A DNA stretch of 64,000 bases from an uncultured Trueperaceae bacterium (GCA_937873495.1 CALMXZ010000011.1:344808-408807); one strand, 5' to 3'. Shown: positions 1 to 53,900, numbered from the stretch's first letter. Translations and numbers: made by a program. Notes: generated from the sequence alone by a model not told the origin.

Positions 1-3000
1 CCCCCACCGCACGCAGAGCTCCTCGACGGACCGCATGGCGGCGCTCGCTCGCTCCGCGGGCGCGGCGCCCGCCAGGACGGCCCACGACTGGGCTATCGAG
101 TCTATGCGCCACTCCGACGCCGCGGCGGTGCCAAGGGGCGTGCCGTCGTCGTAGAAGGCGCGTAGGTACCACCGGCCGTCCCAGGCGGACTCCTCACACG
201 CGCGCGCGTAGGCGTCGGCGCGCGCGGCCCAGCGCTCCGCCTCCGCGTCGCTCCCCCCGGCGTGGCCGAGGAGCCGGGTGAAGCGCCGGATGACGTCGAC
301 CAGGAACCAGGCCAGCCACACCGACTCGCCCTTGCCGGCCGCCCCGACGCGGTTCATACCGTCGTTCCAATCACCGGTGCCCATCAGCGGCAGGCCGTGC
401 CTGCCGAGCGTCGCGCCCTTCTCCAACGCCCTGCAACAGTGCTCGAGCAAGGTGCCAGACTCCTGCCCGGGCGCGTACGCGTCATACCGGTCCTCGGCGT
501 CCGGCGCGAGCGGGCGGCCGGTGAGGAACGGCACGACCTCCCCCAACACCCCGCTCTCACCCGTCGTCGTGACGTAGCGTTCGGTGGCGTAGACGAGCCA
601 GAGGAGGTCGTCGCTGATGCGGGTACGCACGCCGCGACCAGTGGGCGGGTGCCACCAGTGCAGGACGTCGCCCTCCTCGAACTGGTGCGCCGCGGCACGT
701 AGGAGCTGCGCGCGCGCCAGCTCCGGCGCGGCGTGCAAGAGCGCGACCACGTCCTGCAGCTGGTCCCTGAAGCCGTAGGCGCCGCCCGGCTGGTAGAACG
801 CCGTCCGCCCGAAGTAGCGGCTGGCGAGCGTCTGGTAGAGGAGCCAGCGGTTCGTCATGAGGTCAAGGGCCGGGTCGGGCGTGCTCACGCGCACCTTGTC
901 GAGCCTGGCGTCCCACACCGCCTCCGCCGCCGCCAGCTCCGCGGCGTAGGCCTCCAGGTCGCGGTAGCGCTCGGCAAGGTCGAGGGCGGTGGCGCGGTCC
1001 TCGGCTTGGCCGAGCGCGAAGAGGACCTCCTCAGAGCCGCCGACGGCTAGGTCCAGGTGCAGCTGCATGGCCGCGCACGGGTCGGTCCCTGGCGCGATAG
1101 TGCCGCCGAGGCCCACGCGCCGCAGCCCGTCCGGCATGGCGGGCGAGCCACGCCGACCGAGGAACTCGCGCCGGTCCGTCGTCACGCCGTGCGGGGGCCT
1201 GCTGCCGGCGAGGAACGCCACGCGCTCCCCGAAGTCGCTCGAGTAAGGGTTGCGGGCCAGTAGCACGTACCGTTCCGGCACGTAGTCGGGGAGCAGGTGG
1301 TGGCTCGTGCTCTGGCGGTCGACGCCGAGGACCCACTCGGCGTAGTAGGTGACGGTCACGCGCCGCGGCCGGTCGGACAGGTTCCTCACGCTCAAGCGCA
1401 CGAGCTTGACGGGGTCATGGGTGGCGACCGACACCTCGAGCGCCTGCTCGAGGCCGTGGCTCACGTGAGCGTAGGTCGTGCGACCCGCGCCGTGGCGCAC
1501 CTCGAACGGCTCCTCTCCCCCTGCCGGGTGCGGCGTCGCCGACCAGACTTCCGTCGTCTCCTCGTCGCGCAGGTAGACGGCCTCCGCGCTTGGATCGGTC
1601 ACCGGGTCGTTGCTCCACGGCGTGAGACGGTTCTCGCCGCTGTTCACGGCCCACGTGACGCTCAGGCCGGCCTCGGTCGTCAGGCAGCCGAGCGCCTCGT
1701 TGGCGATGACGTTCGACCATGGCGCCGGCGGCAGGGCGCCGCGGCGCGCGCGGATCACGTACTCGCGCCCGTCCTCGGTGAACCCGCCCCAGCCGTTGTC
1801 GTACCTGAGGTTCACCGCCTCCCCGCCCTCCGCCGCGCCCTGTTGGCGTTCCATGACAGGGGTTAGCAGCGGCAACCCTGGTCGGGGCGGCAGGTCAAGC
1901 GGCCGGAGCTGCTCGGCCAACGAGCCGCGCTCCCCGTCGAGGACGACCCGCGCGGCGCTCTCGAGCAACACGAGGTCCGCCGGGGCGAGCTGGTCGCGCC
2001 GCAGGAGGTAGATGCCACCTGGCACGGCAAGCCACGCGTCGCTGCCGAGCCTGACGAGCTGAGCGCGCAGGCGCCCGTGGAGGGTCTGGTCGTAGGCCGT
2101 GTCCTGCGTGTTCAGCACGACGACGTCCACCTTCACCCCGCGGCGGCGCCAGTAGGCGTGGGCGCGCAGCGTCTCGACCACCAGGGGTAGCCGCTCCGCG
2201 GAGTCGAGCCGGACGAGGACGATGGGCAGGTCGCCCGAGATACCCTGCCCCCACAAGGAGGGCTGGCCGAGCGTGTTGGCCGCCAACGTCGCGGCGGGAG
2301 CCCTGAGCTCCGGCAGTGGGTAGACGACGGCCGAGTAGAGCCGCTGGTAGGTCTCCACCGCCGCGGGGGTCAGGTCGTGCTCCTGCAGCTCGACGCGGCT
2401 ACGCAAGCGCGCGAGGTCGAACTCGCGCGCCACCATGCCGGGCTTGCGCAGCTCGTCGAGGAGGTCGGTGAGCTCGCGGGCGCTCGCGCCGCCGGCCGTC
2501 ACGAACGTGATCTCCTCCTGCGAGTGCGGCGCCAGCTCGAGCCGCACGGCCAAGGCCATGACCGGGTCGAGCGTGGCGTCCGGCCCCGCCGCACCCGCAC
2601 GCTCGGCGGCGCCGGCCCCACCTAGCGGCCCGCGCGGCCCGACGGCCGTCGTGACGTCGTTGCCGCGCCCGAGGAACGCCGCCCGGTCCGTCTCGTACTC
2701 GCACGGTGCGGAGTCATCGCGGCCGACGACGGCGTGGGCGGCGAAGAGCGCAGCCTCGTCCGCCGAGCGGGGCCGGCGGCGGAACAGGATGGCCGACCGG
2801 CCGGCCAGGAAGCTGCTCTCCACGAAGAGCTTGCTGAAAGCGGGGTGGCGGGCGTCGGCGGCCGCGGAGCCGAGCACGACCTCGGCGTAGGAGGTCACGT
2901 GCAAGACGCGGCTGGTCGCGCCACGGTTGACGACGGTCAGGCGCCGGAGCTCGGCCGCGCCCTTGGCCACCACGACCTCAAGGCGCGTCAGGATGCCGTC

Positions 3001-6000
3001 GAACTCCCGCTGGTACTCGACCTTGTAGGGGTAGAACACGACCCTGTCGTCCTGGACGCGCGTAGGCAGCGGACCAGGGGTCGCGGACCACACGGACCCG
3101 TCCCGGTCGTCGCGTACGAAGATCCAGGTGCCGTCGGCGTCGCGGGTCCCGTCCGGTCGCCAGCGCGTGATCGCGACGTCCCCCAGCGCCGACCAGCCGC
3201 CCCCCGCCTCGCTGAGCAGGACCGTGTACGCGCCGTTCGACAGCAGGTGGGTGGCGGGCGTGGCGGTGTCGACCGGCACGGGCCACGGCTCGTCGAGCGT
3301 TGCTACGTCGATAGGCGCGCTCGGGCTCTCGTCCTGCCGCAGGTCGTCGACCACGGGCACGTCGAGCGGGATGCGCTCCTGCAGCAAGTACTCGACGGTG
3401 GCCACCCGTGGGTCGGCGTGGAAACGTTCGACCATGGCGTCGTCCGTCAACGCGTTCGCCACGGCCAGCAAGACCATGCCCTGGTGGTGCGCCATGTGCG
3501 AGCGCACGAGCGCGCGGTCCTCCCCGAGCGGGCGGCGCTCGGGCGTGTAGTCGAGGGCCTCGAAGAAGCCGTGCGGCCCGAGGGCGCCGGCCTCGGCCAG
3601 GCGCACGGCGTTCTCGAGCACCGCCCCCGGCCTGCGCCTCAACGCCAGCATGCTCGCGTAGGGTGCGATCACGAGGTCGCTCGAGTACGAGCGGTTCAGC
3701 GCCAGCTCCGGCACGCCGAACGCGTGGTACTGGTAGTTCCCCGCGGCGTCCACGCGCGCGTAACCCGACTCGCTCACGCCCCACGGCACGCCGTTACGCT
3801 TGGCGAACGCCATCTGCACGTCGACGGCCGCCGCGCAGCTCTGGTCGAGCAGCGTCGCCCCGTACCGCCGCGTGAGCAGCTCGGGCATGAGGTACTCGAA
3901 CATCGTCCCGCTCCACGAGAGGAGCGCCGCCCGCCCGCCGAGGTCGCTCAAGGGGCGGTTGAGATGGACCCAGTGGCTGAGCGGCACGTCGTTCTTCGCC
4001 ACGGCCACCAGGCTGGCGAGGCGCGCCTCGGAGGCCAGCAGGTCGTAATGGTTCGAATCGAGCTGCTCGGTATCCACGTTGTAGCCGATATGCAGGAGCT
4101 GCCTATCGGGGTCGAAGAGGAAGGCGAAGTCGGTCGCGTCGATCTCGGCCTCGCTGAGCTCCGCCAGCTTCTCGAAGACCCGCGTCAACCCGGCGGCGGC
4201 GCTGCGGGCCGAGGCCAAGCGCGTCGCTAGGTCGTCGCACCAGGCGCGGCCGGCGGGGGCTACGGCCAGCTCATCGCCCAGCGCGGCCCGGAGCGAGCGC
4301 AACGCTTCGAGCGCCTTCTCCGCCCAAGCGCCCACCTCCCGCAGCGGCGGCTCGTGCGCCAAGGCGCCGACGACCGCCTGCCAAGCGGTGTGAGCAGGCG
4401 AACCCGGCTGGAGTCCGTCCGTCCAGGCGCGCGCCTCCCAGACGGCGCGTACCCAAGGAGCCAGAGAGGCGATCTCACCGAGCGTGACCTTGATCCCGTG
4501 CCGCACGCGCCCCGACCAGAGCCGCACGGCGTCGAGGTCGGGCCCGGTCAGGTCGCCGCCATGCATGGCGGCGACTATGACCTCCTCGACTGTCGGCCAG
4601 GCGTCCCCCTCGAGGAAGGCGATGGTGCTCGGCCACAGCTCGCGCTCGAGCGCGGCCGACTCGACGCGCTCGCGCAAGGCGGCGACGGCCGCGACGGCGG
4701 TGGGTCGCTCCGGCATGGCGGCGAAGAGGGCGTCCTCCAGGACGGCCAGCGCGTCCGTCAGGCCGCTGAAGAAGGCGGCCACGTCAACCGGGCGCTCGAG
4801 CAGCTGCGAGCACCCTTGCCGCAGCGCCACCAGCGCGGCAGCGAAGTTGCCCGAGTCGACGCTCGACACGTAGCGCGGGCGCAGGGGTTCGAGGCTCCGC
4901 GTGTCGTACCAGTTCAAGAGGTGGCCCCGGTAGCGCTCCATGCGCCCCAGGACGTCGAACGTCTGGCGCAAACGCACCGAGAGGTCGACGAGGCCAAGGT
5001 AGCCGAGGTCGTGGGCGGCGAGCGTCGAGAGGAGCATGAGCCCGACGTTCGTCGGGGAGGTGCGGTGGGCCGTGACCGTGCCGGCGCCGAGCTGCACGTT
5101 GTCGGGCGGCAGCCAGTTGTCCTCGGGCCCGACGAAGCGCTCGAAGTAGAGCCAGGTGCGGCGCGCCAGGCCGTGGAGCTCGCGGCGCTCGGCGTCCGTG
5201 AGCTCGCGCGGCGCGCCGTCCGTGGCGAGTGAGAGGAGGTGCGCACTCAGCGGGGCGAGGAGCCAGACGACGAGCGGGACGGCGGCGGCCATGAGGGCCT
5301 CTGGCCTCACAAGCGCGACCGCCAGCGCGGTGAGCGCGCTCAGCGCGAGCGCCCACCCCATGCGGCTGACGTTCCCGGCGAGCGTGGGCGGCGGCTCGCG
5401 GTTCGTGAGCGCGGCCGTGCGCCACTCCAGCAGGTTCCTACGCGTGACGAACAGGCGGTAGAGGGTCACGGCGACGCTCCGCACCACCATGCCGGCCTCG
5501 TAAGGCACGAACGACAGCGTGATCGCGAAGCGTCCGAAGGCTTGGCTCAACGGCTGCCACGGTGTCAACCTCCGCCGCCCGGGCACCGTGTAGTTCTCGA
5601 TCAGGCCGTCAAGGTAGGCGATGACCGCGCCGGCGAGCAGCGGCGCGGCCAAGGTGGAGAGGGCTATCAGGGTCCAGACGCCGGGCGAACCGGGCAGGAC
5701 GAGCCAACCGGCCACGAAGAGCGCGAGGAGCGCCGGGGCGACGAGGCTGCGCCGCAGGTTGTCCGCGACCTTCCACGCACCCGCCGGCCCGAGGCGCTCC
5801 CCCCTGCTGCGCGCGCCGACCAGCGTCGCGAGCAGCCACGGGAGGAGCTGCCAGTCGCCTCGGATCCACCGCTGGGCGCGCCTGACCTGCGCCAGGTAGG
5901 TGGGCGGGTACTCCTCGAACAGGACGACGTCGCTCACGAGGGCAACGCCGCCGTAGATGCCCTCGAGCAGGTCGTGGCTCAGGAGGCTGTTCTCCGGCAC

Positions 6001-7968
6001 GTGGTCGGCGAGCGCACGCTCGAAGTCGTCGACCCGGTAAAGGCCCTTGCCGACGAAGATCGCGGCGCCGAACAGGTCCTGGTAGACGTCGGAGACGGCG
6101 TGGGTGTAGAGGTCGAGCCCGTTCTCGCCGACGAACAGGCGGCTGAAGCGCGAGGCGTTGGCGCTCTCGGGCAGCACGTCGGTGCGCGGCTGGAGCAAGC
6201 TGTAGCCGGCGACGACGCGGCCGTCCTCCCCGAACTCGGCGCGGTTGAGAGGATGCGCGAGCGTGCCTATCAGGCTCACCGCCGCGCCGGGTGGCAGGCG
6301 CGTGTCGGCGTCGAGGGTCAGGACGTACTCGGTTCCTATGAGCTCGGCGACGTCGCCGACGATGAACTCGAACGTCGTGTCGTCCGCACCGCGCAGGAGC
6401 CGGTTGAGTTCCATGAGCTTGCCGCGCTTGCGCTCCCACCCCATCCAAGTGCCCTGGCTCGCGTTCCAGCGCCGGCCGCGGTGCAGGAGGTAGAAACGCC
6501 CCCGCCGGTCGGCGACCCCGTCGGCCACCCCGCCGGCTGGTCCGTACGCGCCGTTCAGGCGCTCCACCCGCCGCCGCGCGTGCGCCAGGAGGTCGGGCTC
6601 GCCAGGCAGCGTGGCCGCCGCGGCGTCGGGGAAGTCGGTCAGCAGCGCGAACGCCAGGCGCGGGTCGGGGTTGCCGAGGTAGTGGCGTTCCAGCTGCCCG
6701 AGCAGGTCGTCGACCTCCTCCCGGCTCGCCACGAGCACGGGCATCACGACGAGCGCGGCGTAGCGGGCGCGCTCGTCGGCCCCTGGGCCAACGCGCGGCG
6801 CGGCAGCCCCCGGGTCCGCGCGCGGCGAGCCGCCGCCGAGGTCGAGGCGCGGCAGGAGCGTCGGGGCGAGGAGACGGTTGAGGGCGTAGTTGACGACCGC
6901 GACCGCCACGGTGAACGCGGGCACGACGAGCAGCGCCGCCGCGAGAGCGACCAGCCATACCGCCGCGCCCGACGCGGCGGCGTACGCGCCGCCCCAGAGG
7001 AGCAGCGTCGCCGCCACGAGCCCGACGCTCCCCAAGTAGACGAAGGTCGGGTGGGCCTTGACCCACGCGCGCGAGCGCTCGCCCATCCGGCGCCGGTAGC
7101 CGAAGGCGTCCTCGAGGAGCGGCGCGCCCCGGTCGATCAAGTAGTAGCCCACGTGCCCGGCCCGCCGGCGCGCCTGGGGCTGCTCCCCGGCGGCGCGCGC
7201 GAGGCGGACGGCCTCGCGGGCCACGGCGACCTCGTCCGTGCCGGTGCGGCGCGCCACCCGCTCGACCACCTTCCGGTAGCGGTCGCGCGTCGCGAACGTC
7301 ATGCGCGCATAGTCGCCGCTCGCGTCCTTACGCAGCTCCCGCTCGCTGTGGCTCGCCGCCTCGAAGAAGACGCGCCAATCGGTGCTCTTGACGGTCCTCA
7401 AGCCGACGATGCAGTCCGCCACGCGCTGCTGGTGGCTCTCGCGCTCGGCGTGGTCGTCCGCCTGGCTCGGGGGCGCCGTGAGCAGCTCGGCGCTCTCCGT
7501 CAACCAGTCGAGGAGAACGAGGCGCAGGAGGCCCGGGAGGGCCCACAGCTCGCCCATGGACAACGGGGCGACGGCCTGGTAGTCCTCCAGCAGGGCACCC
7601 GCCCTGGCGATGTCGAGGCGCCCGCCGCATTCGTCGAGGAGCAGGACGGCGAGGGCCTCCGCGCGCGCGGCCCCGCCGCCTACCGCGCCGTCGGCGAGGC
7701 ATGGCAGACGCCGGTAGAAGTCGGTCGGGAGGTCCTGGGTCGCCTGCCTCACGGACTCCCTGATGAGGTAGTAGTTGTCGAGGAACCACTCGGCGGCGTA
7801 CGAGCCCGTAGTCGTCGTCTCGGCCTCGGCGCCGAAGGCGCGGTGCGCTCGGGCCAGCTTGCGCGTCATCTCGGCGAGGCGCGTGGCCGGGGTCGGCTGA
7901 GCGCGCTTGCTGGGCTCGAGCCCGGCGCCCACGTGCTCTTCCGCCCAGGCGCGCGCCGGACCAGCCAT
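1..7968 (-). CDS. Giant glycosyltransferase, cyclic beta-1,2-glucan synthase-like (GT-2/GT84 domain plus GH94-like C-terminal region). N-terminal roughly 2655 codons; the gene continues beyond the window start. Start codon uncertain (ATG 7966-7968, or GTG 7987-7989).
   Basis: Minus frame with triplets congruent to 1 mod 3 has first-position-of-plus-triplet GC of about 58/60 in a sampled 180 nt, i.e. minus GC3 about 97%, while all plus frames show mixed or low GC3. Hand translation gives MAGPARAWAEEHVGAGL...AEWFLDNYYLIRES..., the DxD motif region VLTLDADTRLPPGA, and the QxxRW motif AQRWIRGDWQ. It continues through ...LPESANASRFSRLFVGENGLDLYTHAVSDVYQDLFGAAIFVGKGLYRVDDFERALADH... with no stop. 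The ORF track lists no minus ORF in this frame between 1 and 8000, consistent with an open frame lacking a stop inside the window. The plus ORFs 262..702, 733..1050, 1297..1866, 2734..4230 and 5239..8109 are its codon-aligned antisense shadows. Confidence 0.6.
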   Translation of the reverse strand, partial: MAGPARAWAEEHVGAGLEPSKRAQPTPATRLAEMTRKLARAHRAFGAEAETTTTGSYAAEWFLDNYYLIRESVRQATQDLPTDFYRRLPCLADGAVGGGAARAEALAVLLLDECGGRLDIARAGALLEDYQAVAPLSMGELWALPGLLRLVLLDWLTESAELLTAPPSQADDHAERESHQQRVADCIVGLRTVKSTDWRVFFEAASHSERELRKDASGDYARMTFATRDRYRKVVERVARRTGTDEVAVAREAVRLARAAGEQPQARRRAGHVGYYLIDRGAPLLEDAFGYRRRMGERSRAWVKAHPTFVYLGSVGLVAATLLLWGGAYAAASGAAVWLVALAAALLVVPAFTVAVAVVNYALNRLLAPTLLPRLDLGGGSPRADPGAAAPRVGPGADERARYAALVVMPVLVASREEVDDLLGQLERHYLGNPDPRLAFALLTDFPDAAAATLPGEPDLLAHARRRVERLNGAYGPAGGVADGVADRRGRFYLLHRGRRWNASQGTWMGWERKRGKLMELNRLLRGADDTTFEFIVGDVAELIGTEYVLTLDADTRLPPGAAVSLIGTLAHPLNRAEFGEDGRVVAGYSLLQPRTDVLPESANASRFSRLFVGENGLDLYTHAVSDVYQDLFGAAIFVGKGLYRVDDFERALADHVPENSLLSHDLLEGIYGGVALVSDVVLFEEYPPTYLAQVRRAQRWIRGDWQLLPWLLATLVGARSRGERLGPAGAWKVADNLRRSLVAPALLALFVAGWLVLPGSPGVWTLIALSTLAAPLLAGAVIAYLDGLIENYTVPGRRRLTPWQPLSQAFGRFAITLSFVPYEAGMVVRSVAVTLYRLFVTRRNLLEWRTAALTNREPPPTLAGNVSRMGWALALSALTALAVALVRPEALMAAAVPLVVWLLAPLSAHLLSLATDGAPRELTDAERRELHGLARRTWLYFERFVGPEDNWLPPDNVQLGAGTVTAHRTSPTNVGLMLLSTLAAHDLGYLGLVDLSVRLRQTFDVLGRMERYRGHLLNWYDTRSLEPLRPRYVSSVDSGNFAAALVALRQGCSQLLERPVDVAAFFSGLTDALAVLEDALFAAMPERPTAVAAVAALRERVESAALERELWPSTIAFLEGDAWPTVEEVIVAAMHGGDLTGPDLDAVRLWSGRVRHGIKVTLGEIASLAPWVRAVWEARAWTDGLQPGSPAHTAWQAVVGALAHEPPLREVGAWAEKALEALRSLRAALGDELAVAPAGRAWCDDLATRLASARSAAAGLTRVFEKLAELSEAEIDATDFAFLFDPDRQLLHIGYNVDTEQLDSNHYDLLASEARLASLVAVAKNDVPLSHWVHLNRPLSDLGGRAALLSWSGTMFEYLMPELLTRRYGATLLDQSCAAAVDVQMAFAKRNGVPWGVSESGYARVDAAGNYQYHAFGVPELALNRSYSSDLVIAPYASMLALRRRPGAVLENAVRLAEAGALGPHGFFEALDYTPERRPLGEDRALVRSHMAHHQGMVLLAVANALTDDAMVERFHADPRVATVEYLLQERIPLDVPVVDDLRQDESPSAPIDVATLDEPWPVPVDTATPATHLLSNGAYTVLLSEAGGGWSALGDVAITRWRPDGTRDADGTWIFVRDDRDGSVWSATPGPLPTRVQDDRVVFYPYKVEYQREFDGILTRLEVVVAKGAAELRRLTVVNRGATSRVLHVTSYAEVVLGSAAADARHPAFSKLFVESSFLAGRSAILFRRRPRSADEAALFAAHAVVGRDDSAPCEYETDRAAFLGRGNDVTTAVGPRGPLGGAGAAERAGAAGPDATLDPVMALAVRLELAPHSQEEITFVTAGGASARELTDLLDELRKPGMVAREFDLARLRSRVELQEHDLTPAAVETYQRLYSAVVYPLPELRAPAATLAANTLGQPSLWGQGISGDLPIVLVRLDSAERLPLVVETLRAHAYWRRRGVKVDVVVLNTQDTAYDQTLHGRLRAQLVRLGSDAWLAVPGGIYLLRRDQLAPADLVLLESAARVVLDGERGSLAEQLRPLDLPPRPGLPLLTPVMERQQGAAEGGEAVNLRYDNGWGGFTEDGREYVIRARRGALPPAPWSNVIANEALGCLTTEAGLSVTWAVNSGENRLTPWSNDPVTDPSAEAVYLRDEETTEVWSATPHPAGGEEPFEVRHGAGRTTYAHVSHGLEQALEVSVATHDPVKLVRLSVRNLSDRPRRVTVTYYAEWVLGVDRQSTSHHLLPDYVPERYVLLARNPYSSDFGERVAFLAGSRPPHGVTTDRREFLGRRGSPAMPDGLRRVGLGGTIAPGTDPCAAMQLHLDLAVGGSEEVLFALGQAEDRATALDLAERYRDLEAYAAELAAAEAVWDARLDKVRVSTPDPALDLMTNRWLLYQTLASRYFGRTAFYQPGGAYGFRDQLQDVVALLHAAPELARAQLLRAAAHQFEEGDVLHWWHPPTGRGVRTRISDDLLWLVYATERYVTTTGESGVLGEVVPFLTGRPLAPDAEDRYDAYAPGQESGTLLEHCCRALEKGATLGRHGLPLMGTGDWNDGMNRVGAAGKGESVWLAWFLVDVIRRFTRLLGHAGGSDAEAERWAARADAYARACEESAWDGRWYLRAFYDDGTPLGTAAASEWRIDSIAQSWAVLAGAAPAERASAAMRSVEELCVRWG

Positions 7969-8012
7969 GTCTCGGTCGTCGTCGGGCACCGTTGCAGGCG
8001 CGTCCGCGCCGG

Positions 8013-8936
8013 TCACCCGCCCCACGTCGCTTCCGTCGCGTCGCCCGGGCGGGCGGCGCGCTCCTGCCATGGCAAGTCGTGGATCACCAGGAGGGGCGTC
8101 GGCACGTAGTCGATGAGGTTGGTCGTCACCTCCCCGAACGGCCATGTGTGGTCGCCGCCGAAGCCGTGGGCGCTCATGACGACGAGGTCGGGTGCGCACT
8201 CGCGCACGAGGTCGTGAAGCGCGGGCGCCGCTCGGCGCCCGGCCACCAGGCGCGCTTCGGCGCCGCGGCCGAGGCCGGCGGCAAGGTCGGTCAGGTACTG
8301 CTTGGCGGCGGCCGTGTTGAGCTCGACGAGCCGCGCGGAGAGCTGCCGCTCCTCGGCGGCGGCCGGCACAGGGCGGGGCACGGCCGGCTCCTCCACCACG
8401 TGCGTCAGGATCACGTGCGCCCCGAACCGCTCGGCCAGGAACCGCACGACGGGCAGCACGCACTCGGCGCGCTGGGAGCCGTCGAGCGCCACCATGACCG
8501 TCTCGTAAGGGCCGGCTCGCTCGGTCGTTTCACCCCTGACGAGCAGCGTTGAGATGAACGACCGCCAGAGGACGCGCCCGCCGACCGCCCCGAAGTGGGC
8601 ACCACCCGCGGCGCCCGTCGGCATGACCAGGAGGTCGGCGCCCTGGTGGGCGCGGCGCACGATGTTCTCCGCGACCTGGCCCTCGGGCAGGTAGTGGGTG
8701 ACCGAGAGCCCGACGCCCGCGAGTAGCGCGCTCACGTGCTCGAGGTAGGCCTGGGCGGCCAGGCGCCGCGCATGCCATTCGACGGCGTCCACTGCTTGGG
8801 ACTCCCCGGCGGGAGCTTCGAGGACGTGCAGCAACTCCACGGTGGCGCCGGAGCCGAGCGCCAGGTCGCGGGCGTGCGCGATGGCTGGTCGGTCGAGGTC
8901 GGTGCCGGTCAACGGCAGCAAGAGATGGTTGAACAT
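8013..8936 (-). CDS. Universal stress protein, tandem UspA domains
   Basis: 307 aa with two UspA-like halves (…VELLHVLE…LLVMPT… and …HVILTHVVE…LVVMSAHGF…). AG-rich RBS GGAAGGAGGAG upstream. Confidence 0.7.
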   Translation of the reverse strand: MFNHLLLPLTGTDLDRPAIAHARDLALGSGATVELLHVLEAPAGESQAVDAVEWHARRLAAQAYLEHVSALLAGVGLSVTHYLPEGQVAENIVRRAHQGADLLVMPTGAAGGAHFGAVGGRVLWRSFISTLLVRGETTERAGPYETVMVALDGSQRAECVLPVVRFLAERFGAHVILTHVVEEPAVPRPVPAAAEERQLSARLVELNTAAAKQYLTDLAAGLGRGAEARLVAGRRAAPALHDLVRECAPDLVVMSAHGFGGDHTWPFGEVTTNLIDYVPTPLLVIHDLPWQERAARPGDATEATWGG

Positions 8937-9135
8937 GCTCGAACTCCTCCTTCCGTAAGACAGCAGCCCCGTACGGGGCTAAGAGCGCGGTGGTGGACGG
9001 TAGGGCGAGCCGCGTGGCGACAGTGTAGGCCCGCCCCCGCAGTGGGCCCGGGTCAGGGCTCACCGCAGGCGCTGCCGGTCCGCCCGACACGCGCGCGCAC
9101 GGAGCGTGAGCCGACCGGGACGCGGTGGCGGCGCC

Positions 9136-10125
9136 TCAGCGGCGCAACAGGTCGATGAGGTGAAGCAAGTTGGCGAACGCCCCGCCCGCAGCGGCGTCGG
9201 CGTGCGGCAGCGGGGAGGTCGTCAGGGCGCCGGTGGCGACGAGGAGCGCGGCGAGCAGCGCGGCCTCGAGGCGCAGGGCGCTGCGCAGCGGCGCGACGGG
9301 GCCGCCGGCGAGGAAGCGCGGCAGGTAGCGGAAGCGGTTGAGGGCGGCCGCCACCACCACGAGCGCGAAGAGGCCGAGTTTCACCCAGAGCGCCACCCCG
9401 TACGCCGAGCGGGCGAAGGCGGCCGGCTCCGTCATGTGGCCGAGGGCGGTGTAGGCGCCGGTGGCCGCAAGGACCACCACCGCCAGCGCGCCGACGGTCG
9501 ACAGGCGCTTGACGGCCGCGGCCAACGCCGAGCGTCCGTCCTCGCCAGGGGCCAGGAGCGCCAGGTAGCCGAGCGGGCCTGCCCACACGCCTGCAGCAAG
9601 CAGATGGATGAAGTCGGCTCCGAGGGGCACGCCGCCTCCCATGGCGGCGGCATGGCTCAGGCGCGCGAAACCGTACATGAGCGCCACCGACGCGCAGGCA
9701 GCCACCGCGCCGAGCGCCGCCCGGGCGGACGCAGGCAGTCGACGCCGCCCGGGCCAAAGCACGAGCGCCACGGTCGCGACCGCCACCAGCCCGGCCAACC
9801 ACCACCGCTCGCGTACGACCCGACCGTGCAACGTCGAGGTGAGGTAGCGGCGCACGAGGTCGGCGTCCACCCGACCGAGGACCTCGCGCAGCGTGGTGGC
9901 GACCTCTAGGAGAGAAGCCGCGACGAGGACGACGGCGCCAAGCAGGACCAGGGCGCCGAACGCCAGGCGCGTCCGCCGCCCGGCGGCGCCGGCTGGGCCG
10001 TCAGGCGGAGCGCCGCGGTCGCCCCCCACCAGGGTCGGGGCGAGCCACATGGCGCAGACGGCGCCGCCGACGAGCAGCATCGTGCCGAGGTAGGCCGAGG
10101 CCTTGAGCGCGGCGGCGAGCGTCAT
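9136..10125 (-). CDS. CopD-family-like polytopic membrane protein (putative copper resistance protein D)
   Basis: 329 aa starting MTLAAALKASAYLG, with about 8 hydrophobic helices. The upstream part of the listed 630-aa ORF overlaps tdh and is rejected. Confidence 0.4.
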   Translation of the reverse strand: MTLAAALKASAYLGTMLLVGGAVCAMWLAPTLVGGDRGAPPDGPAGAAGRRTRLAFGALVLLGAVVLVAASLLEVATTLREVLGRVDADLVRRYLTSTLHGRVVRERWWLAGLVAVATVALVLWPGRRRLPASARAALGAVAACASVALMYGFARLSHAAAMGGGVPLGADFIHLLAAGVWAGPLGYLALLAPGEDGRSALAAAVKRLSTVGALAVVVLAATGAYTALGHMTEPAAFARSAYGVALWVKLGLFALVVVAAALNRFRYLPRFLAGGPVAPLRSALRLEAALLAALLVATGALTTSPLPHADAAAGGAFANLLHLIDLLRR

Positions 10126-32556: not shown

Positions 32557-33114
32557 GTGCCGAACGTGAGCATCAGGCCGGACAAGTGGATAAGGGAGCG
32601 CGCGCTCGAGGGCATGATCACCCCCTTCGAGGAGAGCCTCGTGCGCGAAGGCGTCATCAGTTACGGCTTGTCGAGCTTCGGCTACGACCTGCGGGCGGCC
32701 CCGGAGTGGCGCATCTTCGTCAACGCGTTCAACACGGTGGTCGACCCGAAGGAGTTCGACACCCGCAGCCTCGTGGAGTTCGAGGGCGACACTTGCATCA
32801 TCCCGCCCAACTCGTTCGTGCTGACCAGATCGGTTGAGTATTTGCGAATACCAGATGATACTATGGTAATTGCACTAGGCAAATCTTCGTACGCCAGGTG
32901 CGGTATAGTGGCAAATGTAACTCCCCTAGAACCAGGCTGGCAAGGACATGTCACGCTCGAACTGAGTAACACCACCCCGCTCCCCGCCAAGGTCTACGCC
33001 AACGAGGGCATCGTGCAGCTGCTCTTCTTCCAGGGCGAACGCCCGGAGCGAACCTACGCCGACAGGCAGGGGAAGTACCAGGGGCAGACGGGCGTCACGC
33101 TGCCCAAGCTCTAG
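32557..33114 (+). CDS. dcd: dCTP deaminase
   Basis: 185 aa. …[10 protein letters not shown]…, [15 protein letters not shown] motifs. Start may be GTG 32557 or GTG 32566. Confidence 0.9.
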
Positions 33115-48239: not shown

Positions 48240-48653
48240 CTACTGCATCAGTGCAGATCTAACGTCTGTCAGCGCGAAGTCGGCGCCAACGTAGAGGAGC
48301 GGGGCCGAACGGCGTTTGGCGAGGGCGTAGGCGAAGCTATCGCCGAAGTTCAGGCCACCGCGCGTCCCGAAGCCCTTGCCGTAGTCCAGGCGTGCCTTCA
48401 ACGCGGCACGCGCCAGACTCTCGTCGATCGGGTCGATGCCGATGCGGAAGTCGGACAGAAACGCATCCAGATCGGCGATCGCTTCGCCACGGTCAGCGCT
48501 CTTGATCCTGCCCGCCAGAACGGTCCCGGCCTCGACGTAGTTCACTGCCGATATGAGGCGCGAAGCGTCCTTCTGGAGAGCGGCCATGCAGTCCGACGCT
48601 TCCGCCTCCTCGAACATGATCGCGATGATGGCGGACGCATCGACGATCACCAT
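48240..48653 (-). CDS. vapC: Type II toxin VapC (PIN-domain ribonuclease)
   Basis: 137 aa. [12 protein letters not shown]… with PIN acidic residues. Overlaps the vapB stop by 7 nt. Confidence 0.8.
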
Positions 48654-48919
48654 CGGGGGTGATCAAGCTCTTCCGGCGTGTCGCCTACGGCTTCATCCCA
48701 TTCCTGTGTCGTGACCGGGCGGCGGTCATAGCGTAGTCTGCGCTCGCTGACGAACGCCTTCATTCGGGAAACGTAGTCCCCCTCCTCCTGCTCGGCGCGC
48801 AGCCGTTCCAACCTCTCACGCATGGCCTGCGTGATGGCTTCGGTCATGGTCTCGCCGGTCAGGCGGGACAGTTCCCGCGCTAGCCGGTCCGCCTCATCGG
48901 TTTTGATACTCAAGGCCAT
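48647..48919 (-). CDS. vapB: Type II antitoxin VapB-family (90 aa)
   Basis: Small acidic/basic protein immediately upstream of, and overlapping, vapC. AGGAGG RBS. Lower local GC. Confidence 0.6.
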
Positions 48920-49906: not shown

Positions 49907-50896
<990 letters not shown>

Positions 50897-51097
50897 CTTG
50901 CACCTCTGGCCTTGGCGGGCGCGCCGTAGGTGGCGCTTGGGAGTAGGGGGAGTATAGCCGGGGGCCGGAAACCCGGAGGCTCGATCCGCGGCTAATCCCT
51001 AGTGCTCCTGGGCCGGAGTGGCCACCTTAATGCTGGCCGCCGTGACGACGAACGCGCCAAGAGCATGCACTAGATTCTCGCGCATTCCCGACTAACC

Positions 51098-51571
51098 TTA
51101 GGCGTATATCACGACCACTTGATCTACCACCTCGGTACGGAACGTCTCTACCTGCACGGTTTCGACTGCAACATCGAAGGTCTTCACCCTGCATGTGGCC
51201 GGGTCGAACAGAGACCTGCCCGTAGTAAGATCGAACTCCCATGCATGCCAGGGACATCTAAGTATCTGTCCCTGACGACCAAGTTGGTACTCACCCGGGC
51301 GCGAAGGGAGCGTCGTGCCCATCACCCTCCCCTCGCATAGTGGCGCCTGCTGGTGGGGACATGTGTTGCGCAAGGCAAAGTACTGGCCGCCAACATTGAA
51401 CACCCCAATCGAGCGGTTGCCAACCGTCACGATCTTCCTGCCCCCCACAGGTATCTCGTCAACCGCGGCGACGATGTGCCGAGACGCGACACGGGCCCCT
51501 GGCACGTCCACATCAAGTCGATCACTCATGGTGAAGGGGCCAAACCGCAGACCAGCAAGCGACCGCTGCAC
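51098..51571 (-). CDS. Rieske [2Fe-2S] domain protein (small ferredoxin-like)
   Basis: CPHQ…(17 residues)…CPWHAWEF gives CxH…CxxH. True start may be the internal Met MSDRLDV (51529). Region GC is clearly below the window average. Confidence 0.75.
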   Translation of the reverse strand: MQRSLAGLRFGPFTMSDRLDVDVPGARVASRHIVAAVDEIPVGGRKIVTVGNRSIGVFNVGGQYFALRNTCPHQQAPLCEGRVMGTTLPSRPGEYQLGRQGQILRCPWHAWEFDLTTGRSLFDPATCRVKTFDVAVETVQVETFRTEVVDQVVVIYA

Positions 51572-51923
51572 AGCCTCTCGATATGAGTGGCCTTCGGGGC
51601 CGACGGTCCCCCAGTGATGGGGCTTCGATGCAGCCGGCCGCGATCACCGAGCATCCCCTTGTCAGCCACGATCCAGCCAAGGCTCCAGGGCAAGCGTGAC
51701 AACACGGCATATCGCCTGGACGAGTCGACGACGAGACATACGCGTACTTCTCGGCCAGGGCGTTCGCAAGCTTTACGACCGATCGAGTGCGCCACGCGCT
51801 AGCGACCTCCGAACACAATTGTGGTACTATGCTAGAACATTGTGATAGACTTGTCAACGAGCCCAACGCGTCAGCGGTCTTCGCCCGATCAAGAGTTCAT
51901 TTCTACTCCGCAGGAGGCTTGAA

Positions 51924-53066
51924 GTGTCAGGCGCCACCAAGGACCCGTCGAATACGAAGGCTCACGCCGAAGGTGCCCAACGAGCCATTGGCTCGCAGTC
52001 GGACGTCGGTACGCCGGCCGCACGGGTAGACGCAGACGTCCACCAAGGTATCGATAACGCGTTCTGGGAGAGGCTGCCTATGCCCTGGCGGAAGATGCGT
52101 CCAGGGAGCGCCGTGTCCTGGCCGGCCTCGGTGTTGGGCCACACCGGATACCGATCGGATGTCCATACGGAAGAAGGCGAGTTGCACGATCGCACGGCCA
52201 CAGACGTAACCAAGCGACTGCTGGACGCCTACAAGGTGGACTTCGCCATCCTTACGGGCAACGCGGGCCTGCTCGGAGTAGCCGCTCACCCGAACTCTCG
52301 CTTCGGCGTCTCATTCGCGCAGGCATACAACGAATGGCTCATCGAAGACTGGCTGAACGTCGAGCCCCGCTTCAAGGGATCGATGATGGTCTCGCAGTTG
52401 GACATGGCAGCCGCGGTAGCCGAAGTCGAGCGGGTCGGGCACCACAAGGACATCGTCCAAGTCATCCTCCCTTCCAGCTCCGGGCGGCTCTACGGTGACA
52501 GGTTCTACTGGCCCCTATACGAAGCCGCGGCAGCTCATGGTCTTCCGGTCGCCATCCACCCCTCCGGTTACACGGTCCTCCCACCGACCTCGGCCGGCTG
52601 GCCAACCACTTATCTAGAAGCCCACACCATGATCGCCACGGAGTACCTCAATCACATGATCAGCCTGGCCAGCCAGGGTCCCTTCGAGGAGTTCCCCGGG
52701 CTTAGGTTCGTGTTCATCGAAGGCGGCGTCGCTACTTTCGCGCCCATGCTCTGGCGCCTCGAGAAGAACTGGAAGGCAGTCAGGGCGGAGGTGCCGTGGC
52801 TGACCACCTCACCGCGCGAGTACCTTAGGACCAACTTCAGATTCACGACGCAACCGATCGAAGAGCCGGAGGACCCGGAATTGCTCCGCCGTATCTTCAC
52901 GGACCTGCGTGCAGAACGATCCGTGATGTTCGCCTCGGATTGGCCCCACTGGGACTTCGATGATCCAGAGGCCGCCCTCCGCCCCTTGCCCATCGCCCTC
53001 AGGAACAGGATCCTCGGAGAGAACGCACTAGACCTGTACGGTCTGCGAGGCGCGGCGCCTTCCTGA
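51924..53066 (+). CDS. Amidohydrolase_2 family metal-dependent hydrolase/decarboxylase (ACMSD/LigW-like)
   Basis: GTG after GGAGG. TIM-barrel amidohydrolase-2 pattern (…VDADVH…, …HPSGY…, …FASDWPHWD…). Has a roughly 40-aa N-terminal extension. Lower-GC codon usage. Confidence 0.7.
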   Translation: MSGATKDPSNTKAHAEGAQRAIGSQSDVGTPAARVDADVHQGIDNAFWERLPMPWRKMRPGSAVSWPASVLGHTGYRSDVHTEEGELHDRTATDVTKRLLDAYKVDFAILTGNAGLLGVAAHPNSRFGVSFAQAYNEWLIEDWLNVEPRFKGSMMVSQLDMAAAVAEVERVGHHKDIVQVILPSSSGRLYGDRFYWPLYEAAAAHGLPVAIHPSGYTVLPPTSAGWPTTYLEAHTMIATEYLNHMISLASQGPFEEFPGLRFVFIEGGVATFAPMLWRLEKNWKAVRAEVPWLTTSPREYLRTNFRFTTQPIEEPEDPELLRRIFTDLRAERSVMFASDWPHWDFDDPEAALRPLPIALRNRILGENALDLYGLRGAAPS

Positions 53067-53249
53067 CCGGAGCGGCCGAGCCGACACGCAGCACGAACCG
53101 CAAGACTCCTAACTCACAGCCGATCTGGTAGAGGCGTGGCTACCCCCGCTGATCGGGACTGCGGAGCTCGAGAGTCGGAATACCGGTTTGTCGGGATTGA
53201 GGGAAGCTTCGTCTCATGCGCGTTGGGGGCTATGTACACTTAGGCCCGT

Positions 53250-53900
53250 ATGAGACCGGCCTACGGGCGCGTGACGCTGCGGCCGCTGGAGGAGTTCTCC
53301 GACGCCGACTGGCGCCGTTTGCAGAGCCACTTCCGCGACCCGGAGATCGCCTACTTGAACGGCACCCCGCCGAACCGGATGCCGCTGTGGCTGCTGAAGC
53401 GCCTGCTCAAGACGGACTCCAAGCGCTCGGACAGGGCTACCTTCGGCATCTTCGACGAATGCGACGACTTCATCGGCACGACCGAGCTGTACGACGTGCG
53501 CGGCGAGGTCGGCACGCTCGGCATCATCATCGGGGAGCGCACCCATTGGGCCGGTGGCTACGGGCCGGAGGCCATGCACGCCCTCCTCGGCTACGCGTTC
53601 GACGTCCTCGGCCTGCGCACCATCAAGCTCAACACCTTCGGCGACAACCTGCGCGCCCAGCGCGCCTTCCGCAAGGTTGGCTTCCACGAGGTGGACAGGC
53701 GGCCGGACGCGGAGGGGCGCATGGACGTGCGGATGGAACTCCTGCGCGCCGAGTGGCACCCGGGCCCGAGCAGCCGCCTAGGGTCGGCGCCCACCCCGAC
53801 CCCCTTCGGCACCCCGGCCGACGCGTTGCCCACCGCGCACGACGACGCGACCACCGACCCGGCCATCGCCCGCCGTCAGTCGTCCGACCCCTCGAAGTAG
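53250..53900 (+). CDS. GNAT family N-acetyltransferase
   Basis: 216 aa. …GIIIGERTHWAGGYGPEAMHALLGYAF… acetyl-CoA-binding region. 3' end overlaps convergent uvrC by about 25 nt. Confidence 0.6.
   Translation: MRPAYGRVTLRPLEEFSDADWRRLQSHFRDPEIAYLNGTPPNRMPLWLLKRLLKTDSKRSDRATFGIFDECDDFIGTTELYDVRGEVGTLGIIIGERTHWAGGYGPEAMHALLGYAFDVLGLRTIKLNTFGDNLRAQRAFRKVGFHEVDRRPDAEGRMDVRMELLRAEWHPGPSSRLGSAPTPTPFGTPADALPTAHDDATTDPAIARRQSSDPSK

Follow-up and report, generated by a model that had tools for sequence, protein, structure and literature searches.

A horizontally acquired gene pair in a Trueperaceae bacterium probably encodes an ARO-family oxygenase and its Rieske ferredoxin

Amidohydrolase-related dinuclear oxygenases (AROs) were discovered through the small Rieske ferredoxin genes that neighbour them, within three coding regions (Liu et al. 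2024, PMC10811679). They are defined by an N-terminal D-x-H motif, which lies on the first beta strand and supplies two site-1 ligands, together with a C-terminal D-x-P-H-x-D/E motif that is preceded by about 200 residues or more; no characterised PF04909 hydrolase or decarboxylase has either motif (PMC13154177). ARO-Rieske pairs have already been described, 3,307 by gene neighbourhood, as have approximately 17,000 AROs by motif (PMC13154177). Here we analyse 64,000 nucleotides of DNA from an uncultured Trueperaceae bacterium (GCA_937873495.1, CALMXZ010000011.1:344808-408807), referred to throughout as the window, in which a low-GC island at 50897-53249 carries a Rieske [2Fe-2S] protein gene divergent from an 'amidohydrolase' gene of PF04909 (Amidohydro_2). 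The original prediction for this locus, made from the sequence alone, was a horizontally acquired aromatic-acid module comprising an ACMSD/LigW-type decarboxylase or hydrolase and a Rieske protein that lacked an oxygenase. Our findings make it quite probable, as judged from sequence, that the 'amidohydrolase' is an ARO with its own Rieske ferredoxin and that the two genes were acquired horizontally.

The nearest characterised protein is D3EI84 (8SM7) from 'Geobacillus' sp. Y412MC10 (Liu et al., JACS 2024, PMC10811679; JACS 2026, PMC13154177), which belongs to the low-potential, Mn(III)Fe(III)-cofactor-forming class and has a Rieske ferredoxin neighbour, an arrangement to which the window pair can be likened. 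The window ARO shares with D3EI84 the D-V-H, ILTG-type, AIHP, (I/V)EGG and D-x-P-H-W-D-F motifs, but the two proteins are distant: Paenibacillus-type relatives are 43-45% identical to the window ARO, the host phylum and the gene neighbourhood are different, and the window protein is extended by 33 aa at its N terminus. SfbO of Litorilinea aerophila (8SM6), a cambialistic, Mn/Fe-preferring sulfonate beta-monooxygenase, has the same fold and ligand set as the window ARO and is paired with a small Rieske ferredoxin, SfbR; the mechanism proposed below is modelled on SfbO/SfbR. Both oxygenases have aromatic residues at the gamma4/gamma5 positions (W341/W343 in SfbO, W343/F345 in the window ARO). 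In the window protein, H and I stand in place of the SfbO arginines R232 and R235, which bind sulfate, so that a sulfonate substrate is unlikely for it. The AibH1H2/AibG/AibF system of Rhodococcus wratislaviensis (PMC7782822; 6M1W, 8FUL) likewise combines a Rieske ferredoxin with a Mn/Fe hydroxylase of amidohydrolase fold, and it hydroxylates 2-aminoisobutyrate in the first step of the catabolism of this unusual amino acid. AibH is, however, a heterodimer of two PF04909 proteins with a reductase, AibF, encoded in the operon, whereas the island has a single PF04909 gene and no reductase. LigW, ACMSD and gamma-resorcylate decarboxylase share the Pfam family and the TIM-barrel fold of the window ARO, but they build a mononuclear Mn/Zn site from other motifs, have neither D-x-H nor D-x-P-H-x-D, lack a Rieske partner and match the window protein at 1e-14 to 1e-9 only.

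The genes of the pair are as follows.

51924-53066, plus strand: ARO gene, 380 aa, matching PF04909 at 1.3e-33 over residues 84-374, with solved ARO relatives and the ARO motifs
51912-51917, plus strand: AGGAGG ribosome-binding site, 6 nt 5′ of the ARO GTG start codon and kept in L002, a metagenomic contig with the same pair
51098-51529, minus strand: Rieske [2Fe-2S] ferredoxin gene, 143 aa, matching PF00355 at 1.8e-16; an alternative GTG start at 51571 would give 157 aa

Both Pfam assignments had been made in the original prediction and were confirmed at these values, but the placement of the PF04909 protein among the ACMSD/LigW-type enzymes was not. In a search of all solved structures, its best relatives were 8SM7/D3EI84 (1e-79, over residues 35-374) and 8SM6/SfbO (5e-65), and further relatives were the AibH1/H2 chains of 6M1W/8FUL (1e-54 to 1e-45) as well as 8SM8 and 8SM9. 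The D-x-H motif is present as D38-V39-H40, which aligns to the D-V-H of D3EI84 and SfbO and has no other in-frame start codon ahead of it, while the D-x-P-H-x-D motif is D339-W-P-H342-W343-D344, followed by F345 and preceded by 338 residues. At H212 (in AIHP) and E266 (in IEGG) the aligned D3EI84 and SfbO residues are identical, and going by the published ligand count these two would be the remaining metal ligands, a mid-barrel His and a bridging carboxylate. The neighbourhood through which AROs were discovered is also found here, the 143-aa Rieske gene being the immediate divergent neighbour. In the protein database, the window ARO is matched by one cluster at 92% identity, which belongs to the sister lineage, and then by metagenomic proteins at no more than 79%; named homologues from Paenibacillus and Chloroflexota are 43-49% identical. 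A scan of metagenome contigs with back-translated peptide patterns, chiefly DWPHWDFD, matched at least 600 stretches, and 575 among the matches listed (L097-L174 scan) encode relatives of approximately 30% identity, mostly from soil.

Metal-class rules have been published for AROs, according to which Mn-dependent low-potential proteins have a hydrophobic gamma1, a hydrophilic gamma2 that is not Phe/Tyr and an aromatic gamma4, while gamma5, aromatic or hydrophobic, is proposed as the ferredoxin interface (PMC13154177). In the window protein, gamma1 is V39 (hydrophobic), gamma2 is T111 (hydrophilic), which lies in an AILTG aligned to the AILTG of SfbO, whose gamma2 is also Thr, and gamma4 is W343 (aromatic); all three fit the 'Mn-dependent' row in Table 1 of PMC13154177, and gamma5 is the aromatic F345. 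By these rules, which are empirical and derived from 15 proteins, the window ARO is fairly likely to be of the Mn-type low-potential class (L-ARO). Every sequence-level mark of ARO and Mn-type membership that we looked for was present, and those of LigW/ACMSD-type enzymes and of Rieske non-haem oxygenases were not.

The Rieske protein, with fewer than 250 aa, has intact ligands (C57-P-H59 and C92-P-W-H95), and among solved structures it is closest to the ferredoxin components of oxygenase systems. No alpha subunit of a Rieske non-haem oxygenase was found in the island or its flanks, NdmA-type proteins matching the Rieske domain only (2e-3). The original prediction was correct in stating that no regulator is adjacent, as the pair has no neighbouring regulator gene. 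The ARO motifs and the solved ARO relatives indicate that it was therefore wrong to conclude that an oxygenase is lacking: the amidohydrolase-fold protein would be the oxygenase and the Rieske protein its ferredoxin. Public gene calls shorten the Rieske protein to a 74-aa C-terminal fragment (window 51098-51322; also in L001 and L002-L006), which has a weak Pfam match in L001 and none in L002-L006, so that automated neighbourhood analyses would miss the ARO-Rieske association in this lineage.

We then considered the origin of the pair. The GC content of 50897-53249 is 0.618, compared to 0.712 for the whole window, and among sliding windows of 2,353 bp (n=1,233; mean 0.711, sd 0.022) the minimum starts at 50901. 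GC at third codon positions (GC3) is 0.66 in the Rieske gene and 0.77 in the Amidohydro_2 gene, compared to 0.93 in MoxR, 0.88 in DUF58 and 0.95 in both GNAT and UvrC. The predicted low-GC island is thus the lowest-GC stretch of the window, with atypical GC3 in both genes; the accompanying statement that GC3 exceeds 90% elsewhere applies to most genes but not to the VapBC genes (0.75-0.81) or to a dCTP-deaminase-like gene (0.81). The island and its host flanks are placed as follows.

50961-53227, no strand: inserted island of approximately 2.27 kb, flanked by MoxR and GNAT, which are divergent; borders approximate
49907-50896, minus strand: MoxR-type AAA+ ATPase gene (PF07726, 1.2e-63), left host flank
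53250-53900, plus strand: GNAT acetyltransferase gene (PF13302, 4.9e-19), right host flank

A UvrC protein scan with one genome per species yielded 80 loci, all from Trueperaceae or other Deinococcota (best match 97%), onto which the window proteins were mapped. GNAT and MoxR occur at the locus without ARO or Rieske genes in 56 of the 80 genomes, and in 54 of those 56 their divergent start codons are at most 400 bp apart (median near 90 bp). The pair was found at the same place only in L012 (UvrC 94%), in addition to the metagenomic contigs L002-L007 and L096, and is restricted to a shallow clade (UvrC at least 94%) consisting of the window lineage and one sister lineage. Synonymous divergence (dS) between the window and L002 is 0.435 for the ARO gene and 0.34-0.59 for the flanks, and this closeness fits a single insertion in the common ancestor followed by vertical descent. 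These findings support the entry of the pair by horizontal transfer into the short GNAT-MoxR intergenic region of a recent ancestor of this Trueperaceae lineage, and the horizontal acquisition proposed in the original prediction is borne out by the atypical composition together with the empty site in 54 related genomes. The homologue loci in L091 and L093 match the composition of the island (locus GC 0.63-0.64, ARO GC3 0.77-0.79), which is compatible with a donor of approximately 63% GC.

The left edge was placed where homology to the empty sites stops, just past a conserved GGAGTATAGCC block (50949-50959). L008, the closest species representative, ceases to be collinear at 53228, and the right edge was set immediately ahead of the GNAT -10-like TACACT (53235-53240), which is common to the window and the empty sites. 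No terminal direct or inverted repeats, target duplication or tRNA were found at the island ends, and gene and Pfam annotation revealed no integrase or transposase gene in or beside the island. A GGCTA microhomology at both junctions was considered and dropped, as it is missing from L012. A TA(C/G/A)ACT hexamer located 7-11 nt 5′ of the GNAT ATG is kept in many Trueperaceae (window 53235-53249; empty sites L009-L019), which suggests that the GNAT mRNA is leaderless or nearly so. Upstream of MoxR there is a conserved GGCTATACTCC block.

Two further observations concern variation around this site. In L008 (12434-20252), collinearity with the window extends from 64000 to a breakpoint at 53228, past which unrelated high-GC genes follow; among them are one for a trypsin-like peptidase joined to an nSTAND1 NTPase and one for an nSTAND1-WD40 protein. 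The region upstream of GNAT may be a hotspot of variable cargo, or the L008 contig, from a metagenome-assembled genome, may be chimeric. A toxin-antitoxin pair of VapC (PIN) and VapB (Rv0623-like) at 48240-48919 (GC 0.63, GC3 0.75-0.81) occurs only in the window lineage, L002-L005 and L012 and is missing from the other Trueperaceae UvrC loci, and is a second small lineage-specific insertion, approximately 2 kb from the ARO island.

The gene context of the homologues was investigated on the contigs of six homologues at 66-79% identity, to which the metagenome scan added one more. Full nine-gene clusters with a divergent solute-binding protein (SBP) gene were seen in L088, L089, L090, L091/L092 and L095. 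One strand of the full cluster encodes the SBP (SBP_bac_5), two Opp/Dpp-type permeases, a D-2-hydroxyacid dehydrogenase, an AstE/AspA deacylase, a Peptidase_M19 dipeptidase and the Rieske protein, and the other strand encodes the ARO and a 340-aa GntR-family regulator (9157-10176 in L091). In the L090 variant the Rieske gene is placed after the GntR gene; the short L094 shows SBP, ARO and GntR only, and L093 has an SBP-like start upstream of the ARO gene and other genes after it. In L088, L089, L090, L091 and L095, the ARO is 66-76% and the Rieske protein 67-71% identical to the window proteins, and the divergent promoter core is the same. The cluster transporter is of peptide/opine type and the deacylase is DoeB-like (L088-L095); no NCBIfam model reached its curated cut-off for naming the cluster members, and the C-terminal 250 residues of the GntR protein had no Pfam family match.

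Compared with this cluster, the window is without the transporter, the three downstream enzymes and GntR, its candidate operator palindrome has decayed, and the distance between the Rieske and ARO genes is 394 bp rather than approximately 7 kb. None of the other cluster genes was found anywhere in the 64-kb window by tblastn with all cluster proteins, and when the cluster loci were compared with the entire window by tblastx, the ARO was the one match that could not be put down to composition-driven noise. From the gene order, it appears reasonably likely that the pair was reduced from a nine-gene cluster through the loss of approximately 6.5 kb between the promoter and the Rieske gene, with GntR also lost. 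The corresponding interval in the window is the following.

51530-51800, minus strand: spacer or Rieske 5′ leader, with near-neutral evolution and no detectable coding remnant

Spacer open reading frames (ORFs) of 114 aa and 89 aa showed nothing above chance when compared with M19 by BLASTP. No structured RNA was detected in the spacer, which had no Rfam match and a fold z of +0.92 relative to shuffles. A third small gene (91 aa, called in L007) was rejected because it is not conserved in frame.

A comparison between the window and L002 revealed how the parts of the island have evolved. The ratio of nonsynonymous to synonymous divergence (dN/dS) is 0.094 for ARO and 0.075 for Rieske, alongside 0.076 for UvrC and 0.078 for MoxR; these values, equal to those of the housekeeping neighbours, indicate that selection has kept both genes since the reduced form came about. 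The genes are 83-90% identical (ARO core 90%) and the promoter core 84%, while the spacer is 63% identical with 14 gap columns, and its indels break the reading frame. Together, the spacer and the outer flanks of the island are 63-74% identical and contain indels, nearly as expected of neutrally evolving sequence.

The divergent promoter region contains the following features.

51829-51857, minus strand: leftward sigma-70-type promoter, TTGACA (51857-51852), 17 nt, TAGCAT (51834-51829), with 10/12 consensus positions
51814-51823, no strand: CACAATTGTG, a perfect 10-bp palindrome, lineage-specific and the sole copy in the window (0.01 expected by chance)
51820-51831, no strand: TGTGGTACTATG, decayed palindrome copy overlapping the predicted start of the leftward transcript
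51839-51847, no strand: ATTGTGATA, second copy of a 9-nt direct repeat, in the leftward promoter spacer

The leftward promoter is the sole consensus promoter found in 50850-53300. Its -35 TGTCAAC and the CTA of its -10 are invariant in all orthologous loci, and a 45-bp core, TTGTGGTAGCACACTAGARCATTGTGATA-N4-TGTCAAC, is recognisable in every one of them. In the full clusters this promoter is predicted to drive the SBP-to-Rieske operon; in the window it points towards the Rieske gene, before which it would give a leader of approximately 290 nt with no special structure. The length of the divergent promoter, originally put at 350 bp, is 352 bp from the upstream GTG (51571) but 394 bp from the conserved ATG (51529). 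The TTGTCA element of the original prediction, at 51851-51856, is not a rightward -35: its reverse complement is the invariant leftward TTGACA -35; a candidate rightward -10 for the ARO gene, read from the sequence, is TAGACT at 51846-51851.

The palindrome CACAATTGTG had been described as operator-like, a reading that the original prediction itself made dependent on conservation in orthologous promoters. The closest relative has GCGTAATTTGTG instead, the palindrome is missing from all full-cluster orthologues, and the other orthologous promoters differ completely from it on the left half, so that by this measure it does not qualify as an operator. Conservation is seen instead in an adjacent palindrome, TGTG(G/C)TAGCACA, which is a perfect 12 bp in L091 (TGTGCTAGCACA), matches at 10-11/12 positions in L093, L094, L095 and L002, and is a likely candidate for the site of the cluster GntR regulator. 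The window copy TGTGGTACTATG agrees with the perfect L091 palindrome at 7/12 positions, a decay that is as expected once the regulator had been lost. The repeat copy ATTGTGATA pairs with ATTGTGGTA at 51818-51826, 21 bp apart (repeat ATTGTGRTA; 2 matches compared to 0.03 expected), and CATTGTGATA is largely conserved across the orthologous promoters. The second operator-like site of the original prediction, ACATTGTGAT at 51838-51847, falls within the conserved spacer of the leftward promoter.

Several other explanations of the locus have to be weighed against these data. A non-oxidative ACMSD/LigW-type decarboxylase or hydratase of aromatic acids, beside an orphan Rieske carrier without an oxygenase, would agree with the PF04909 match, as the family includes LigW (1e-14), gamma-resorcylate decarboxylase and LigJ, but such decarboxylases and hydrolases match the window protein weakly (1e-14 to 1e-5) and the AROs (1e-79 to 1e-45) do so by 30-65 orders of magnitude better. 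Moreover, the window protein has the D-x-H and D-x-P-H-x-D motifs reported absent from characterised PF04909 hydrolases and decarboxylases, and the full clusters examined pair the gene with a Rieske protein, a peptide-type transporter, a deacylase and a dipeptidase, never with aromatic-ring genes. We consider this explanation highly improbable, and the predicted link to aromatic acids was also not upheld, the context of the ancestral cluster being peptide- or N-acyl-amino-acid-like. We are just as sceptical of an ancestral presence of the pair at the locus followed by repeated deletion in other Trueperaceae. This would require many independent and precise deletions, since 56 deeper and shallower lineages are without the pair and 54 have tight junctions, and the GC3 of the pair is 0.16-0.29 under that of the host genes and equal to that of the lower-GC loci L091 and L093, even though neither a mobility gene nor a target duplication points to an insertion and loss or rearrangement does occur at the site, as is evident from L008 (UvrC 97%), which is also without the pair here.

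Whether the two-gene form was ever larger in this lineage is a separate matter. It could have been transferred as a pre-formed minimal cassette, or the two-gene state could be ancestral and the nine-gene cluster a later product; the spacer is indeed without a detectable SBP or M19 remnant, and many members of the family have ARO and Rieske genes as neighbours with no other genes in common (PMC10811679). All examined homologues at 66-79% identity nevertheless have SBP divergent from ARO, the window keeps the promoter core that elsewhere serves the SBP-to-Rieske operon, and a CAT with a degenerate ribosome-binding site stands at the SBP start position, in an alignment that is weak, so that we regard a form that was never larger as unlikely, though conceivable. 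It is more doubtful still that the pair is a non-functional relic whose genes are drifting to pseudogenes after the decay of the cluster. The absence of seven of the nine cluster genes, including the regulator, the neutral evolution of the spacer and island flanks (63% identity), the decaying candidate operator and the shortening of the Rieske ORF by gene callers would all suit a relic. Both ORFs are, however, intact in the window, L002-L007, L012 and L096, dN/dS matches that of the housekeeping neighbours over a dS of approximately 0.4-0.8, all metal and Rieske ligands are intact, and the promoter hexamers and ribosome-binding site are conserved.

Our preferred interpretation, an acquired ARO-ferredoxin pair reduced from a larger cluster, also has points that weigh against it. 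Function is assigned from sequence only, D3EI84 is itself without a known substrate, and the metal-class rules have the narrow empirical base given above. No clear Shine-Dalgarno sequence precedes the conserved Rieske ATG, and no good rightward consensus promoter was found for the ARO gene. A reductase gene is absent from the island and from the full clusters (not every window gene was scanned), and the electron source is assumed; a missing reductase would be normal for this subgroup, because none of the full clusters has one. Finally, the spacer contains no remnant of deleted genes, with M19 and SBP hidden Markov models scoring below 300 shuffled controls in six frames, and the deletion, read from gene-order comparison only, may predate the transfer and have occurred in the donor.

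Based on SfbO/SfbR, we propose that electrons would pass from NAD(P)H through a ferredoxin reductase encoded elsewhere to the Rieske [2Fe-2S] protein and from there to the ARO's Mn/Fe (or Fe2) site. This two-metal site would be carboxylate/histidine-bridged and is predicted to prefer Mn/Fe, and the Rieske protein would act as a dedicated ferredoxin that docks at the aromatic W343/F345 surface patch. The ARO would then activate O2 and hydroxylate a C-H bond of a small compound, probably derived from an amino acid or peptide. The shared divergent promoter core survived and the regulator and operator did not, and expression is probably constitutive. Deinococcota are known for a manganese-rich cytoplasm. 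Because the pair has been kept under strong purifying selection in two diverged lineages after losing the transporter, three enzymes and GntR, one might speculate, with low confidence, that it was re-purposed as a self-sufficient constitutive Mn/Fe hydroxylase acting on an endogenous or diffusing metabolite, unlike the catabolic role of its parent.

Some other features of the window were noted during this analysis. A giant gene at 1-8463 on the minus strand, of at least 2,800 codons and running off the left end, has GT2, glucoamylase-like and GH94 domains and resembles a cyclic beta-1,2-glucan synthase. A second candidate 'island' at 262-9909, composed of seven ORFs with no match, was rejected as shadow ORFs opposite this gene; antisense ORFs of this kind, up to 956 aa long with a GC1 of 0.93 and no family matches, are easily mistaken for novel genes. 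The dCTP-deaminase-like gene at 32557-33114 (GC3 0.81) lies in a 1-kb stretch with a GC of 0.625, the second-lowest GC dip of the window.

The locus illustrates the kind of misannotation of which the ARO papers warn, with relatives labelled 'amidohydrolase' or 'TIM-barrel metal-dependent hydrolase', and the amidohydrolase label together with a shortened or missed Rieske gene would leave a reader with the impression that an oxygenase is missing. The locus does not alter the present understanding of the ARO family. As a probable Deinococcota example of the Mn-type ARO class, it is mildly unusual in its host phylum, its selected two-gene core and the visible decay of an operator after regulator loss. 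The full clusters provide a defined gene set from which the substrate may be guessed, and the window would represent a natural experiment in which a nine-gene cluster was cut to an oxygenase and a ferredoxin that are still under selection, which points to the minimal functional unit.

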